Origin: Candidatus Iainarchaeum sp.
GTDB taxonomy: Archaea; Iainarchaeota; Iainarchaeia; Iainarchaeales; 0-14-0-20-30-16
Reading direction: 5' to 3'
DNA length: 6,560 nucleotides
NCBI GenBank assembly: GCA_903916665.1
Contig: CAIWXP010000058.1
Location: forward strand, 1-6,560
In this document: piece by piece, positions 2,111 through 6,214 of the stretch
How positions within the stretch are numbered: the first letter of the stretch is position 1
Layout of the letters: every line of letters begins with the position of its first letter
Position numbers and translations under genes: made by a program
The notes under the pieces: generated by a model
What the model saw: the letters and a program-made list of their open reading frames with translations, nothing else
Databases searched by the model: none
Told to the model about the DNA's origin: nothing

Positions 2111-3334
2111 TTATTTCTTTTGGACTTTTGGCTTTAAATCAGCTGTTTCTTGATTCTTTTTTTCCAAAGGAGAATTATGTTGTTCTTTTTCCTTAAGTAA
2201 TTTAGCAATTAAATTAGAATTTTGTTCTCTATATAGCTCTAATTCTTCTAATCTTGAATTAATATCATCTTGATCTATATTTGTCTTATTCTTTGAAAAT
2301 TTCTCTAATTCCATCATTCTTCTATTAATATCAGTAATTGATTCCTCATAGTCTACACTATTATTATTGCTATTTGATAATGCTATTGAAATCTTATTAT
2401 CAACTATTGTTCCTATCTTAGAATCAAAATCTTTTATTGTATTTAATTTATCTAAAGCTAATTTTATATCATCAACATTTAATTTTGTTTGTAAATCTTT
2501 CATAAACAAATCTAATTTATCATTACAATAATTATCAATTTTTGATCTTGATGCATTTACTAAACTTTCTAAAATTTTACTTGCCAAACTTAAAGTTGAA
2601 TTTGTTCTATTGGTAATATTTTCAACCTGTGCTTTATATTGATCAAACATTTCCTGTAATTCCCTTGTACTTTCTCTTTTAAAATTATCTAAAGTAGCAT
2701 TTAAACTTTCTTTAATATTCTGAACCGAATCAATTTGTTCACTTAGAGATCGTTTCATATCATTTAATGTTTTTGTTAAAACATCAATTTCTTCTAATTT
2801 TTTTTGGGTATTTTTATTTATTTCTTGTAATAAATTCAAATTGTTATCCACTTGTTTTTTAATTTCATTTAATTTTTGTGTTGTTAATAAATCAATTTTA
2901 CTTGATAATAATGTTCTTTGAGAATCTATTATTGTTTTCATTTTTAATAATTCTTGAGAAGTAATTTCATTTACTTTTGTTTTTATTGTCTCGTCAATTT
3001 CTCTTTCTTTTTCCTCAATGGTTTCTAATTTTTGCGTTACAATAGTAATAATTCCTTCTTGCCATACTCCTAAAGATGTTTTATCCACTTCTTTTAGTGA
3101 AGGATCTTCTGAATTTTTAGAATTAGATATTTGTTCATCAAATAATTGATCTTCCTGTTTTTTTGTGGGCTTCTTTTCATCGGGTATTGCTTTATTATAT
3201 TTTATACTTTCAACCATTTTTTGAGAATAATCATAGTCTACGCCCGCATCTACCAAACTAGCAATAATTTCATCTTCTGGCATTTGCAATTGCAACATTT
3301 TTTTAATACTATCAACAACTATTTCATCACTCAT
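2111..3334 (-). CDS. long coiled-coil protein (407 aa) with a small N-terminal helical, UBA-like domain
   Basis: The long ORF has consistent codon usage. Residues from about 90 to 390 are heptad-like and rich in K/E/Q/N/L/I (LETIEEKEREIDETIKTKVNEITSQELLKMK...). The N-terminal 45 aa (VDSIKKMLQLQMPEDEIIASLVDAGVDYDYSQKMVESI) look like a three-helix UBA/CUE-type bundle. No enzymatic motif is present. Confidence 0.8.
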   Translation of the reverse strand: MSDEIVVDSIKKMLQLQMPEDEIIASLVDAGVDYDYSQKMVESIKYNKAIPDEKKPTKKQEDQLFDEQISNSKNSEDPSLKEVDKTSLGVWQEGIITIVTQKLETIEEKEREIDETIKTKVNEITSQELLKMKTIIDSQRTLLSSKIDLLTTQKLNEIKKQVDNNLNLLQEINKNTQKKLEEIDVLTKTLNDMKRSLSEQIDSVQNIKESLNATLDNFKRESTRELQEMFDQYKAQVENITNRTNSTLSLASKILESLVNASRSKIDNYCNDKLDLFMKDLQTKLNVDDIKLALDKLNTIKDFDSKIGTIVDNKISIALSNSNNNSVDYEESITDINRRMMELEKFSKNKTNIDQDDINSRLEELELYREQNSNLIAKLLKEKEQHNSPLEKKNQETADLKPKVQKK

Positions 3335-3398
3335 TAGCTAAGCACCTGTTATATATAAGATATATAGGTTTATATTCTTTCTGGTTTTTCTTTATTCT
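3335..3398. promoter_or_regulatory. divergent promoter region with stacked TATA-like boxes
   Basis: This 64-bp gap separates divergent starts at 3334 (-) and 3399 (+). TTTATATT at 3369-3376 is centred about 26 nt upstream of the ATG at 3399, and no SD precedes that gene, so a leaderless mRNA is plausible. A palindromic TTATATATAA (3349-3358) and GATATATA (3359-3366) could serve the minus-strand gene. An AGGTG (plus-strand CACCT, 3342-3346) could instead act as an SD for that gene. Confidence 0.4.
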
Positions 3399-3911
3399 AT
3401 GGGTTTTGAATTAACAATAACACAAACAATATACAATTTTTTTAATGGTCTAGGACTAATTGGACTGTGGAATATAATAACAAATACCTATGTGATATTA
3501 TGTCTTGGATTTTTATTGTTTGCATTTTTACAAAGACGTTGGATTTTAATTGCATTTTATGCAATATGTAATGCAATTGGTTTTGGTTTAAAAGAACTAA
3601 TAACTTTATTTTATTTTAGAGCAAGGCCCTATGCAGTTTTAAATTTAAATATAAAAGCAAATCTAACTGCAAATTCTTTTTATAGTGCACATGCTTTTGT
3701 TGCATTTATTTCTGCATTTTTCATTTTCTTTTTAACAAAAAATAAATGGTTAAGAATTGGTGCAATTGTTTTAGCAATAATAATTGCATTTTCAAGATTG
3801 GTGTTAGCAGAACATTATATTTCTGATGTTTTTGCAGGTTTCTTAGTAGCATTAATATTATATTTAATTAGTAAAAAGATTTATGATAAATATTATACTG
3901 AAAAACCCTAA
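3399..3911 (+). CDS. PAP2-superfamily (type 2 phosphatidic-acid / polyprenyl-diphosphate) phosphatase, integral membrane
   Basis: The PAP2 signature blocks occur in order: ...FRARP (C1, with the Lys offset from the canonical Kx6RP), YSAHA (C2, an SGH-like variant) and SRLVLAEHYISD (C3, SRx5Hx3D, an exact match). About five hydrophobic helices are present in 170 aa. Confidence 0.85.
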   Translation: MGFELTITQTIYNFFNGLGLIGLWNIITNTYVILCLGFLLFAFLQRRWILIAFYAICNAIGFGLKELITLFYFRARPYAVLNLNIKANLTANSFYSAHAFVAFISAFFIFFLTKNKWLRIGAIVLAIIIAFSRLVLAEHYISDVFAGFLVALILYLISKKIYDKYYTEKP

Positions 3912-3916
3912 TATTT

Positions 3917-3930
3917 AAAAAAATAAAAAA
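3917..3930 (-). terminator. oligo-T tract (T6-A-T7 on the minus strand), candidate archaeal termination signal
   Basis: The plus strand reads A7-T-A6, so the minus-strand RNA would read UUUUUUAUUUUUUU directly after the closing stem of the structured element. Oligo-T tracts are the main known archaeal termination signal. The same A/T block could also act as a TATA-like box for plus-strand transcription. Confidence 0.3.
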
Positions 3931-3935
3931 CAACA

Positions 3936-4100
3936 CCTAACCTATTGCCAAAGGCGTTTCTTTTTGAAATTGTCAAAAACTGTGCCTCTAACTTATAGTT
4001 TGAGACACTTTGTAAAACATTTCATTTCTTAGACAGAAATGTTCTACACTTTCTTCTTTCTCTAAAGAAAGAAGTTGTTGGCGCTTTTGGCAAAGTTAGG
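3936..4100. ncRNA. candidate structured RNA or palindromic element: four hairpins enclosed by a long-range stem (family unknown)
   Basis: Closing stem: CCTAAC 3936-3941 pairs with GTTAGG 4095-4100, and TTGCCAAAGGCG 3945-3956 pairs with CGCTTTTGGCAA 4082-4093, with one G-T position. H1: TTTTTGA 3961-3967 / TCAAAAA 3973-3979. H2: 3982-3993 / 3997-4008, 12 positions with 2 mismatches. H3: CATTTCT 4023-4029 / AGAAATG 4035-4041, with an alternative register of 4016-4023 / 4037-4044. H4: CTTCTTTCT 4053-4061 / AGAAAGAAG 4066-4074. The strand is unresolved. The G-T position in the closing stem favours the plus strand, and the C-A position in H2 would be a G-U pair on the minus strand. Confidence 0.35.
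3957..3965 (+). terminator. oligo-T tract (TTTCTTTTT), candidate terminator for the PAP2 gene
   Basis: This is the first T-rich run downstream of the PAP2 stop (3909-3911) on the plus strand. Confidence 0.25.
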
Positions 4101-4117
4101 CTTTTCTAAAAAGCCTA
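4097..4117. terminator. perfect 9-bp hairpin overlapping the AMMECR1 stop codon
   Basis: TAGGCTTTT (4097-4105), loop CTA, AAAAGCCTA (4109-4117). On the minus strand this reads TAG(stop)-GCUUUUU..., a hairpin containing a U5 run directly at the stop codon. Its 5' arm (TAGG) is shared with the outer closing stem of the structured element, so the two pairings are mutually exclusive. Confidence 0.35.
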
Positions 4118-4690
4118 CTTATTATCTTTACTATCATCTTCTGCGAATGTATCTGCAGTAAATTGATATAGGCTTATTGGAACTCTTCTCCATGATGCCT
4201 CTTGCATTTCTGCTTCACTACATAAATGATTCAAAAATTCATCTTTATCAGGATACATTTTCCACATGGTTGGCAAAAATACTTGCTTATGCATTCCTTC
4301 TTTTAAAATTAAACCTAATCTTGAATTTATTTTTGACAATAAATCTTCTGGACCTTTATAATCTAATTTTTTAATTTCACTCAAAATAGAAATTTCAATG
4401 GTTATATTTGGCAAATCATTTTTTGCAACTTTTTTATACTTTGAATTATACAAAGCAGCATTTACTGCTGATTCTTGTATGCTAATGTAAATTTCTTTAT
4501 TTGGTTCTGTTACTCCTGCCATGGCTCGTATAAAATTATTTTGAATTAAAACAACAAATACCCCTGCTCTTTCATAACAATCATCTGAAAACTCACTAAA
4601 ATCAGGCGAATAATCTCTACCATCTAATTTTGATTCTATACTTAATCTAGCAATTCTTAATAATTCATTTTTTGTGTCTTTTGATACCAT
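4115..4690 (-). CDS. AMMECR1-family protein (divergent)
   Basis: The sequence is collinear with the AMMECR1 fold pattern: LLRIARLSIE..., GVFVVL, the motif region IRAMAG (canonical LRGCIG), SAVNAAL, ITIEISILSE, GLILKEG...VFLP and EFLNHLC. I prefer the ATG at 4690 because it follows AGGTGGGGGGAG (4696-4707) with a 5-nt spacer. The longest ORF starts at 4714, giving 8 extra residues and no SD. Confidence 0.85.
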   Translation of the reverse strand: MVSKDTKNELLRIARLSIESKLDGRDYSPDFSEFSDDCYERAGVFVVLIQNNFIRAMAGVTEPNKEIYISIQESAVNAALYNSKYKKVAKNDLPNITIEISILSEIKKLDYKGPEDLLSKINSRLGLILKEGMHKQVFLPTMWKMYPDKDEFLNHLCSEAEMQEASWRRVPISLYQFTADTFAEDDSKDNK

Positions 4691-5054
4691 TTTTTCTCCC
4701 CCCACCTTTCCCATTTGATTTTTTATTATTTTCTTTAATATTATTTTTCTTGATATTCTTTTTAATTTTTTCTTCTAAATATGATTTATGTAAATCATCA
4801 GCTACTTTTTCATGATGTGCTTCTTTTGAATCATCATTCCCTTGTTTTTCTTCTTTTTCTGATTTTGATTCTATTTCTTGTTTATTCTTTTCAGTTTCCT
4901 GATTCCTATTTCCAGTTTCTTGATTTTTCTTTCCCAAAGAAGAATTTTGTGAATTAATAATTCTCTTATTTAAATAATTAAAGAATATGATTAAAAAGAC
5001 TAGTACGAAAATCAATATTACCAAAATCAATGCAATTAAACCATATATTGTCAT
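4665..5054 (-). CDS. single-pass membrane protein with a highly charged, low-complexity K/E/N/Q tail
   Basis: The N-terminal helix TIYGLIALILVILIFVLVFLIIFF is followed by about 100 aa of charged repeats (KKNQETGNRNQETEKNKQEIESKSEKEEK...). The ATG at 5054 is preferred. The ORF-track start is a GTG at 5063 that overlaps the upstream TGA as GTGA. The 3' end overlaps the AMMECR1 start by 26 nt. A low-complexity composition lowers confidence that this is a conserved protein. Confidence 0.55.
   Translation of the reverse strand: MTIYGLIALILVILIFVLVFLIIFFNYLNKRIINSQNSSLGKKNQETGNRNQETEKNKQEIESKSEKEEKQGNDDSKEAHHEKVADDLHKSYLEEKIKKNIKKNNIKENNKKSNGKGGGRKNGIKRHKK
4863..4925 (-). repeat. degenerate tandem 21-nt (heptapeptide) repeat inside the charged-tail gene
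   Basis: Minus-strand units are AATCAAGAAACTGGAAATAGG (4925-4905), AATCAGGAAACTGAAAAGAAT (4904-4884; 16 of 21 identical to unit 1) and AAACAAGAAATAGAATCAAAA (4883-4863; weaker). They encode NQETGNR, NQETEKN and KQEIESK. Confidence 0.4.
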
Positions 5055-5059
5055 AGCTA

Positions 5060-6202
5060 TCACAAAATCTTATGTATTTTAATATAATCTGAGAATTCAG
5101 TTCTTTTTATTATTCCCAATAATTCTTTACTTGAAGGACTAACAACAGGAATAACTTCCAAATCCTTTGCAACCATGTATTGGGCAACATAGGCTAGATT
5201 TTCTTTATCTGTAACACTGTCAACACCTTTAGCAACAGAACCCACCTTTGTAGTAGGCCAGTAGAGTTTATTTACCTTGGATATGATCTCAACATCAATA
5301 ATACCATATTTGCTGTCTCCATAGTCAACAACTGCATCTGGATTCATTGTTTTTTTCATTTCTTTAAAAACATCAGTAATAAATAAATCACTTTTAAATA
5401 TTAATTCAACAGGTATCATAAAAGATCTTACAGATTTGCCTTCCAATACACGAAGGATTTCATACTCTCTTAATTCCTTTACTGTTGAATAATAAATAAA
5501 CAAACCAATCAAAATTATTATAATATCCCAAAAGAACAATCCCGCCAATATTACAATTAAAGCAATTATTTTACTTATAGCTGGAACTATTTTATTTGCA
5601 GAATATTGACCAAATATCAAAGTTAGCACTGCTTTTGCTAATCTACCTCCATCCATGGGCATGGCAAAAATAAACATATTAAAGCAAAATAACAAAAAAG
5701 CAATCCAAAATAAAAAGAAAACAGGAAATTGCATTATTGTAAAATCAAAGGTTTGGGCAGTTAGTGTATTTTGTAGTATAACAGTTTCTGGCCAATAACT
5801 AGCTAAAACTGTCAAACCCAAAAAAACAAAGAATACCATTAAAATAAAATATACAAATAACCCCGAAAATGCATATAAAAATTCCTGTTTAGCATTATCA
5901 AAATCTTTACCAAATATTTTTTTAGTACCAAAGGGATAGATAATAAATTTTCTTAATTTAAGCGTAAATAAATGTGCAACTCCTATTTGCATCAAGTCAT
6001 GAAGCAAAATAAACACAATAAATGCAATAAAAAGCAAAACCACAAATAGACTTTTCATGCTATGAAAAATTATTAATCCTAGCAATAATCCTAAAATAAA
6101 GAAAATTAATGTAGAATCAATTTCAACTATGCCAAACTTCAAGCTAAACTTAGGCAGATTTGTATCCCCAAAAGGAGCCTTAAGCTTAGCCAAGAAAGAC
6201 AT
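5060..6202 (-). CDS. M50 / site-2-protease-family membrane protein with C-terminal tandem CBS domains; HExxH motif degenerate
   Basis: The architecture matches archaeal S2P-CBS proteins: multiple TM helices, the third-ligand motif FNMFIFAMPMDGGRL (NxxPxxxxDG type, D184 at 5651-5653) and a CBS pair in the last 130 aa or so (VRSFMIPVE...GIIDVEII... and ...VIPVVSPSSKELLGIIKRTE). At the position of HELGH the sequence reads HDLMQ (5987-6001). An SD-like AAGGTAAT precedes the ATG at 6202. Confidence 0.88.
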   Translation of the reverse strand: MSFLAKLKAPFGDTNLPKFSLKFGIVEIDSTLIFFILGLLLGLIIFHSMKSLFVVLLFIAFIVFILLHDLMQIGVAHLFTLKLRKFIIYPFGTKKIFGKDFDNAKQEFLYAFSGLFVYFILMVFFVFLGLTVLASYWPETVILQNTLTAQTFDFTIMQFPVFFLFWIAFLLFCFNMFIFAMPMDGGRLAKAVLTLIFGQYSANKIVPAISKIIALIVILAGLFFWDIIIILIGLFIYYSTVKELREYEILRVLEGKSVRSFMIPVELIFKSDLFITDVFKEMKKTMNPDAVVDYGDSKYGIIDVEIISKVNKLYWPTTKVGSVAKGVDSVTDKENLAYVAQYMVAKDLEVIPVVSPSSKELLGIIKRTEFSDYIKIHKIL

Positions 6203-6214
6203 AATATTACCTTA

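Follow-up and report, generated by a model that had tools for sequence, protein, structure and literature searches.

A lineage-restricted hairpin array between the convergent AMMECR1 and PAP2 genes of a Candidatus Iainarchaeum contig

In a Candidatus Iainarchaeum sp. contig (CAIWXP010000058.1, whose entire 6560 nt are called the window here), the gap that separates PAP2 from the convergent AMMECR1 gene is filled by a lineage-restricted, strongly structured, non-coding array of hairpins. The array has one homolog, in a distant relative where its parts are rearranged, and it is not a conserved multi-way-junction RNA. Its structure, its homology, the compensatory changes between the two copies, its patchy distribution and its position relative to a terminator are direct observations. 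Because the array sits between the AMMECR1 stop codon and a conserved T6AT7 tract, we tentatively read it as an accessory array in the 3´ untranslated region (UTR) and terminator region of the AMMECR1 operon, acting like clusters of repetitive extragenic palindromes (REPs) or bacterial interspersed mosaic elements (BIMEs); we put the probability of this reading at roughly 45%.

The AMMECR1/PAP2 gap is the most structured stretch of the contig

An earlier note on this DNA, made from the letters alone, had singled out the convergent gap as oversized, and it is: compared with its 203 nt, the remaining junctions of the window measure 6-97 nt or are overlaps. The hairpin element also is richer in G+C (~32%) than the window (~25%). 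When folded with RNAfold and compared with 200 shuffles per strand, the gap gave -65.5 kcal/mol on the minus strand (shuffles -38.8±4.1, z -6.5) and -58.1 kcal/mol on the plus strand (shuffles -33.4±4.4, z -5.7). On neither strand did any of the 200 shuffles match the real fold, which is the result of the shuffled-sequence control that the earlier note had named. With single-stranded DNA parameters, the fold was unchanged (z -6.3, 0/200 shuffles equal). Among 320 200-nt windows covering the whole contig on both strands, the ten best z-scores all overlapped 3881-4240, with a best value of -7.5 and a value of -3.4 for the next unrelated window. The most structured stretch of the contig is 3931-4117, and it is non-coding.

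On both strands, the predicted fold consists of a 6+12-bp closing stem (P1) enclosing four hairpins (Ha to Hd), together with a perfect 9-bp hairpin (S, 4097-4117) that shares 4097-4100 with the outer stem (Table 1). Folding thus reproduced the fifth hairpin of the earlier note and its overlap, and the T-runs likewise lie where they had been described (minus strand, T6AT7 at 3917-3930; plus strand, runs at 3957-3965 and 4102-4105). Alternative pairings had been taken as a hint of a conformational switch. In the window, both the slipped register of the hairpin called H3 in the earlier note and the competition between S and P1 are real, but neither is kept in the homologous array described below; since the alternative register of H3 is absent there, it does not argue for a switch.

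A rearranged homolog retains the stems of four hairpins

We compared the window with related loci (L001-L025, labelled Iainarchaeota/Diapherotrites, ~14 lineages), among which L007 carries the sole homologous hairpin array, at 4565-4741. The L007 gap, a 186-nt hairpin-rich stretch, folds at -60.2 kcal/mol (z -5.5), and when folding energy was regressed on G+C for 1345 windows from 11 loci, the top two outliers were L007 4561-4720 and window 3961-4120. Exact strings of 13, 14 and 12 nt are common to the two gaps. Their best local alignment scored 43, compared with 19.9±2.6 for dinucleotide shuffles (maximum 32), and the four best blocks totaled 103, compared with 67.5±4.9 (maximum 84) for shuffles and 83 or less for real-sequence controls from the rest of L007.

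In the AMMECR1 sense, the blocks are S; B1, composed of the box TTGCCAAAAGCG, CCA(A)C and Ha; B2, composed of Hb, AAA, Hc and A(A)G; and B3, the Hd region. Their order is S-B1-B2-B3, followed by an inverted box (CGCCTTTGGCAA), in the window and S-B2-B1-B3 in L007. The 12-mer TTGCCAAAAGCG is identical in L007 (4670-4681), but is placed after Hc and lacks a distal partner; Ha comes after this box in both loci. Also identical is the 14-mer TTTTACAAAGTGTC, which runs across Hb, the linker and Hc, and Hd aligns with L007 4712-4731 (TTTAACAATTGTAAAAGAAA) as the third-best local block. The L007 array folds as beads on a string, and since the closing stem pairs two inverted boxes, an arrangement missing in L007, the multi-way junction is a feature of the window only. 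The fold of the earlier note, a closing stem around four hairpins, therefore holds for the window, but not as a conserved junction, given that L007 has no closing stem and two of its blocks are swapped.

Across S, Ha, Hb and Hc, 41 stem pairs are comparable: 31 are identical, 7 are changed on both sides yet still paired, 0 are changed on one side, and 3 are mismatched in one sequence. One of the 7 compensated pairs is in S, and Ha, Hb and Hc have two each. S is identical to its counterpart (L007 4565-4585) at 19/21 positions, with one G-C to C-G swap that still pairs, and in Ha (L007 4687-4711) 2/9 pairs are altered on both sides and still paired. Hb (L007 4588-4622) has 9 identical pairs, 2 compensatory changes (C-G to G-C and A-U to G-C) and 1 G.U to U.U change, while Hc has 7 identical, 2 compensatory and 2 mismatched pairs, with an extra inner hairpin in the L007 loop. 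For Hb and Hc together, with their 4 compensatory pairs, 93.5% of cells are paired, compared with 29-55% when the partners are slid by 1-3 columns. The loops are unrelated between the window and L007, in Hb as elsewhere.

Since the proteins of the two genomes are 48-74% identical, unconstrained DNA should be unalignable, which argues that the individual stems, not the overall junction, have been maintained. The two comparative checks proposed in the earlier note thus have divided outcomes. Compensatory changes are present in four hairpins, but they support independent hairpins and not a junction; the stems of S, Ha, Hb and Hc are kept in L007, but the closing stem and the module order have changed.

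The same comparison bears on whether the array has any function. It could be a neutral by-product of repeated template switching and slippage that expanded terminator palindromes in an unselected gap, a proposal consistent with the fluid block order, with most relatives dispensing with the element, and with modules that look duplicated (Ha is like S, and Hc and P1 come from inverted KTGYCAAAAGC boxes). We consider this improbable, given that four hairpins have stayed alignable at such protein divergence, with 7 compensated and only 3 disrupted pairs.

Other contents of the same gap in related lineages

The gene row M50-small protein-AMMECR1, facing PAP2-~400 aa-NMD3-helix-turn-helix (HTH), is kept in ~14 lineages. 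The AMMECR1/PAP2 gap measures 4-71 nt in L004/5/6, L009/L021/L022, L010, L020, L023, L024 and L025, and in L004, L009/L021, L010 and L020 it holds a hairpin of 6-7 bp (ATGRAG..CTTCAT or GAAGAT..ATCTTC), immediately after which comes a double T-run. A HicB-HicA toxin-antitoxin pair occupies the gap in L001/2/3/11/12 (L001 4568-5025), fitting tightly between both stop codons, and L008 (4008-4315) and L013 have a decaying HicAB, with HicB shortened to 55 aa and HicA truncated to 47 aa. In L016 (173-880), the gap contains a 235-aa open reading frame (ORF235) without a detected family, with internal repeats like G(L/F)xKNIxYF. We also noted a rearranged locus, L014 (2612-2750), in which PAP2 is gone and AMMECR1 is followed by the ~400-aa homolog and NMD3 on the same strand.

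In alignments, the T6AT7 tract and PAP2 stop region of the window fall on the T-run region of L010, L009 and L020, relatives with a hairpin plus T-run, which places the ~165-185 nt of the array between the stop-codon hairpin and the ancestral terminator. The closest relatives of the window are without the element: L021/L009 (M50 88-90% and p407 76-79% identical) and L020 (PAP2 83%). At the stop-codon site, they carry the other hairpin, ATGRAG..CTTCAT. L007, on the other hand, is among the most distant relatives (p407 48%, NMD3 58%, PAP2 54% identical). The absence of the array from the closest relatives argues against a conserved, essential non-coding RNA gene, and judging from these loci the array appears dispensable.

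The gap has no supported coding sequence and no known RNA family

The earlier note had reported no plausible ORF in the gap and a maximum of about 10 codons. None is supported as coding, but the ~10-codon maximum holds for ATG starts only; with TTG and GTG starts there are five ORFs of 22-28 codons, none of them conserved in frame. The 10-codon ATG ORF lies in another frame in L007. A TTG ORF starts at the TTGCCAAAAGCG box in both loci (MPKAPTT.. and MPKAST..), but we rejected a small peptide, as the likeness is that of identical DNA, the remainder diverges and no start context is present. Remnants of HicA, HicB, truncated HicA and ORF235, sought in both gaps with tblastn, gave nothing better than E 0.04.

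Rfam covariance models run over the whole window gave no match in the gap at E≤10, and ARAGORN found 0 tRNA genes. With lax filters on 271 nt, the best match was archaeal sRNA162, at 23.2 bits compared with a gathering score of 78, and it was not reproduced in L007. The cmscan check that the earlier note had called for thus returned no family at or above the gathering threshold, in line with its own failure to assign one; the families covered include tRNA, 5S, SRP, RNase P, C/D, H/ACA, group II intron and archaeal sRNAs. An H/ACA guide RNA was rejected on inspection: Hb and Hc are each followed by ACA, but their stems are unbroken and have neither a pseudouridylation pocket nor a K-turn. We also rejected a split or unusual tRNA, a retron msr/msd, a bridge RNA and an omega RNA, since a T-loop motif is missing and no gene for a reverse transcriptase, TnpB or IS110 lies close by.

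We also considered whether the array might be an independent gene, with its own promoter, for a new and stable archaeal small RNA (sRNA) whose hairpins would do its work, for instance by serving as a scaffold to which proteins bind. The strong structure and raised G+C, the compensatory changes in four hairpins, the conserved single-stranded junction UUUUAC-AAA-GUGUC, the T-runs that bound the element and the weak, sub-threshold sRNA162 match all would fit such a gene. We nevertheless think an sRNA gene distinctly unlikely: on reading the sequence, we found no TATA- or BRE-like (B recognition element) promoter common to the window and L007 on either strand, neither the module order nor the loops are conserved, the nearest relatives lack the element, and the sRNA162 match is far below threshold and absent from L007.

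A proposed 3´-end hairpin array of the AMMECR1 operon

In Methanococcus maripaludis, termination becomes more efficient as more U4-tracts precede the 3´ end; two U4-tracts are the minimal strong aCPSF1 signal, single tracts are weaker, and hairpins are not needed (PMC8716108). The T6AT7 tract at 3917-3930 is a double tract of this kind, at a position shared with L010, L009/L021, L020 and L004. RNA polymerase leaving AMMECR1 would meet single U4-U5 tracts in the S loop, the Hb 3´ arm and Hd, and would halt chiefly at T6AT7. Since only single tracts lie upstream of T6AT7, a substantial share of transcripts should carry the array, which would then be the 3´ UTR of the M50-p132-AMMECR1 transcript. 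In such an RNA, the 9-12-bp hairpins would fold one after another and could block 3´-to-5´ decay, supply extra termination or pause points for both convergent genes, or do both. We regard this as the most parsimonious role, one comparable to that proposed for REP/BIME clusters lying between convergent genes in bacteria (PMC3733652).

PAP2-sense transcription would encounter TTTCTTTTT at 3957-3965, the plus-strand reading of Hd and the first T-tract downstream of PAP2, and then more tracts within the array. The array thus may separate the convergent transcription units, which in relatives would run into each other's coding ends. The closing stem is a window-specific pairing of two inverted copies of the TTGCCAAAAGCG box, outside the conserved design. 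As for its history, the array probably was gained by insertion or block replacement and then reshaped by local duplication and inversion of hairpin modules.

Two observations bear on the strand. The identical pairs of Hc include a U.G wobble for which pairing is possible on the minus strand alone; this wobble, kept in both loci, and the G.U pair of Hb in the window pair on the AMMECR1-sense strand only. The minimum free energy also is slightly lower on the AMMECR1-sense strand in both loci. Together, these features weakly favor the AMMECR1-sense strand. Among the candidates listed in the earlier note, a structured 3´ UTR of the AMMECR1 operon and an element like a miniature inverted-repeat transposable element (MITE) remain in the lead.

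Several points weigh against a 3´-end array. We infer the strand, the transcript ends and any effect on RNA stability. Archaeal termination needs no hairpins, so that known biology does not require a terminator role for the stems, and the near-perfect palindromes would be equally compatible with a role at the DNA level. The closest relatives do without the array; its presence in the window and one roughly equidistant outgroup only would mean several losses or a horizontal gain, a pattern that a selfish or mobile element explains no worse than a host function does. As to covariation, 29/500 shuffles reach the value observed for Hb and Hc, a comparison of only two sequences with little power, and the comparisons of S and Ha are a hand alignment leaning towards structure.

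Origin of the array and the case for a mobile element

The main rival of the 3´-end array is a non-autonomous mobile DNA element, MITE-like or of the REP, REPIN or BIME kind, that landed in a permissive convergent gap; a transposase encoded elsewhere would recognize its hairpins, and an effect on RNA, if there is one, would be incidental. The distribution speaks for it. At one orthologous site, the array is absent in the sister L021/L009 and in L020 and present in the distant L007, and other lineages carry other insertions (HicAB, ORF235) in the same gap. Since the stop-codon hairpin matches that of L007 (19/21), not that of the sister lineage, the whole block would have been gained or exchanged rather than grown in place, the alternative being several independent losses. 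Ha looks like S, and inverted KTGYCAAAAGC boxes pair to make up Hc as well as the closing stem, which points to local duplication and inversion as the means by which the array was remodeled. This remodeling and the record of other insertions at the site keep a mobile, MITE- or REP-like origin alive.

The form of the element fits as well. It is non-coding, with only the 22-28-codon TTG/GTG ORFs, and measures ~165-187 nt (~165-185 bp on the mobile reading). The two arms of P1 make up an imperfect inverted repeat of ~20 bp, in which CCTAAC-TT-TGCCAAAAGCG faces CGCCTTTGGCA-ATAG-GTTAGG over ~19-21 bp with one indel and one mismatch. As BIMEs do, the array also carries a short box (KTGYCAAAAGC) in alternating orientation; the window has 2 copies of it and L007 has 3.

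Dispersal, by contrast, was not detected. A covariance model of Hb-Hc gave 0 further matches in 76.7 kb of related loci (17 sources). Pattern scans of viral, phage, plasmid and GTDB sequences likewise gave nothing real: a pattern fitting the window and L007 gave one chance match within a GC-rich bacterial gene among the GTDB genomes, four patterns run over viral contigs gave 0, 0, 0 and one chance coding match, and with blastn, phages and plasmids yielded nothing beyond short chance matches. Comparison of the filled site (window) with empty sites (L010, L020, L021) showed no direct repeat that could be a target-site duplication, although the flanks are too diverged for exact boundaries. The L007 copy is without the terminal inverted repeat, the 6.5-kb contig has no transposase, and for distant genomes to have acquired the element independently at one site, insertion would have to be site-specific. 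On balance, we regard a mobile element as unlikely, albeit the most serious of the alternatives.

We also considered a hint of repetition from assembly breaks, in that identical ENA contigs stop at 3921 and near 4023, but rejected it because these are low-coverage fragments, one of them chimeric, and are no evidence of repetition. One ENA contig (L018) is 100% identical to window 2810-3810 and then continues for ~33 nt of unrelated, GC-richer sequence (L018 1213-1245), probably a chimeric end.

On a further proposal, the array might be a self-contained archaeal non-coding cassette of an undescribed class, one that brings its own stop-codon hairpin, moves horizontally among distant DPANN (Iainarchaeota-like) genomes and inserts site-specifically between the AMMECR1 stop codon and the terminator; such a cassette would be either a mobile structured RNA/DNA element or a transferable 3´-end regulatory module. 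Taken as a whole, we think this quite unlikely.

Features and neighboring genes

The coordinates of the hairpins, the terminator and the two convergent genes are given in Table 1. The genes of the window encode an HTH protein, NMD3, a 407-aa protein, a PAP2 phosphatase, AMMECR1, a small membrane protein and an M50 peptidase. The PAP2 protein has a 79% identical homolog in "Candidatus Diapherotrites archaeon CG08_land..." (Iainarchaeota, kingdom Nanobdellati, DPANN), and by this likeness the source organism is a small-genome DPANN archaeon.

Table 1. Positions of the array modules, the terminator and the flanking genes in the window
Feature	Position	Strand	Description	Basis or remark
S	4097-4117	-	Perfect 9-bp hairpin TAGGCTTTT-tag-AAAAGCCTA	Holds the AMMECR1 stop TAG (4115-4117); U5 run in loop
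P1, 5´ arm	4082-4100	-	CCTAAC (4100-4095), TT, box TTGCCAAAAGCG (4093-4082)	Pairs with 3936-3956
Ha	4053-4074	-	9-bp hairpin CTTCTTTCT-ttag-AGAAAGAAG	RNAfold
Hb	4012-4047	-	12-bp hairpin GTAGAACATTTC-(12-nt loop)-GAAATGTTTTAC	RNAfold
Linker and Hc	3982-4011	-	AAA linker (4011-4009) and 12-bp hairpin GTGTCTCAAACT-ata-AGTTAGAGGCAC	RNAfold
Hd (B3)	3957-3979	-	7-bp hairpin TTTTTGA-caatt-TCAAAAA and GAAA	RNAfold
P1, 3´ arm	3935-3956	-	CGCCTTTGGCAA (3956-3945), TAG, GTTAGGT (3941-3935)	Pairs with 4082-4100; no L007 counterpart
T6AT7	3917-3930	-	Double U-tract terminator, AMMECR1-sense	Aligns with T-runs of L010, L009/L021, L020, L004
PAP2-family phosphatase gene	3399-3911	+	Convergent with AMMECR1	Pfam PF01569, E 1e-15
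AMMECR1-family gene	4115-4714	-	Final gene of the M50-p132-AMMECR1 row	Pfam PF01871, E 5e-27

We noted several further features of the locus. The ORF of the 132-aa membrane protein (4665-5063, GTG start) overlaps the AMMECR1 start by 50 nt (4665-4714), and a comparable overlap is called in relatives, for example in L001 (3679-4044 and 4001-4546). A 36-nt direct repeat, 86% identical, occurs in two minus-strand genes (2145-2180 and 4915-4950), each time in frame: the 407-aa protein has NSPLEKKNQET close to its C-terminus, and the 132-aa membrane protein has NSSLGKKNQET.

A long imperfect hairpin extends over the start codon of the M50 peptidase gene (6111-6210, minus strand), in which codons 1-10 pair with codons ~22-32 (GTCTCTATTATC...GATAGTAGAGAT). 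Its energy in the window is -30.2 kcal/mol (z -2.7). It is found at the equivalent position in six lineages, on the sense strand only (L004 ~2534-2700, L001 ~2481-2650, L008 ~1977-2140, L007 ~2675-2840 and, on the minus strand, L021 ~4160-4327), and a few pairs are altered on both sides, for example UA to GC and AU to GC. The hairpin could sequester the M50 start region, but the signal is confounded by coding constraint.

Implications and comparison with known systems

DPANN archaea have tiny, tightly packed genomes, in which 200 nt given to hairpins are therefore worth attention, and little has been described of their non-coding elements. Should the array be a transcribed 3´-end module, REP-like hairpin clusters, known in bacteria, also would shape archaeal mRNA ends, even though archaeal termination is believed to work without hairpins. 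A mobile array would rank among the first small elements of a non-autonomous kind seen in DPANN archaea, and the AMMECR1/PAP2 gap could then serve to mark genome plasticity, with a hairpin array, HicAB or ORF235 at one site. For now its value is modest, with two instances known and transcription that we infer.

Of the systems that the array calls to mind, the integron-type solitary attC site would have its folded strand cut at the GTT of the R box, and would explain cassettes such as HicAB at this position. The outer ends of P1 on the minus strand, GCCTAAC (4101-4095) and GTTAGGT (3941-3935), are paired 7-mers that match RYYYAAC/GTTRRRY exactly, for a background of 0.00087 per nt; large attC sites may have a branched, variable terminal structure on the folded strand, as here (PMC2727003), archaea have integrons (PMC9668308), and the gap is an insertion hot spot. 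However, in attC sites two to three bases of the R''-L'' arm are extrahelical, and the central spacer, of ~5 nt, is unpaired (PMC2727003). In the array, the L stem has 12 continuous pairs with one A.C mismatch and neither bulge nor extrahelical bases, the spacer is 1 nt/3 nt, and the L''/L' boxes are unlike core sites. Neither motif is conserved in the L007 homolog, the HicAB and ORF235 insertions of relatives have no attC-like flanks, and the contig has no integrase, recombinase domain or cassette array. An attC site thus is very improbable.

The array resembles MITEs in being non-coding and intergenic, with a length of 165-185 bp, terminal inverted repeats that match imperfectly over ~20 bp in the window copy, and filled and empty sites. 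It is unlike them in showing no target-site duplication and no detected second copy, and in having as its sole homolog one without terminal repeats at the same locus. The likeness to archaeal U-tract terminators (aCPSF1/FttA-assisted) is that the element ends at a conserved double U-tract, and the single U4-U5 tracts of the array, on both strands, could give a ladder of 3´ ends and alternative 3´ UTRs (PMC8716108); unlike the array, the described signal is without 165 nt of hairpins upstream of the U-tract.

REPs occur mostly between convergent or co-directional genes near 3´ ends, have G-T pairing and vary among strains, with mRNA 3´-end protection and termination among their proposed roles (PMC3733652). 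They differ from the array in being 20-40-nt palindromic units present in tens to thousands of copies per genome, with a GTAG/CGTC tag and, for GTAG REPs, a RAYT (REP-associated tyrosine transposase); the array is known from one contig of its genome, its hairpins mostly differ from one another, and its host is a DPANN archaeon whereas REPs are bacterial. Hb begins with GTAG in the window and GTAT in L007, the tetranucleotide lying inside the stem. In the array as in REPs and BIMEs, short stable hairpins with G-T pairs are clustered in a convergent gap near 3´ ends and vary in presence, the G-T pairs hinting at a role as RNA; the array begins at the stop codon, and the KTGYCAAAAGC box alternates in both loci, as forward...reverse in the window copy and as forward, reverse, forward in that of L007.

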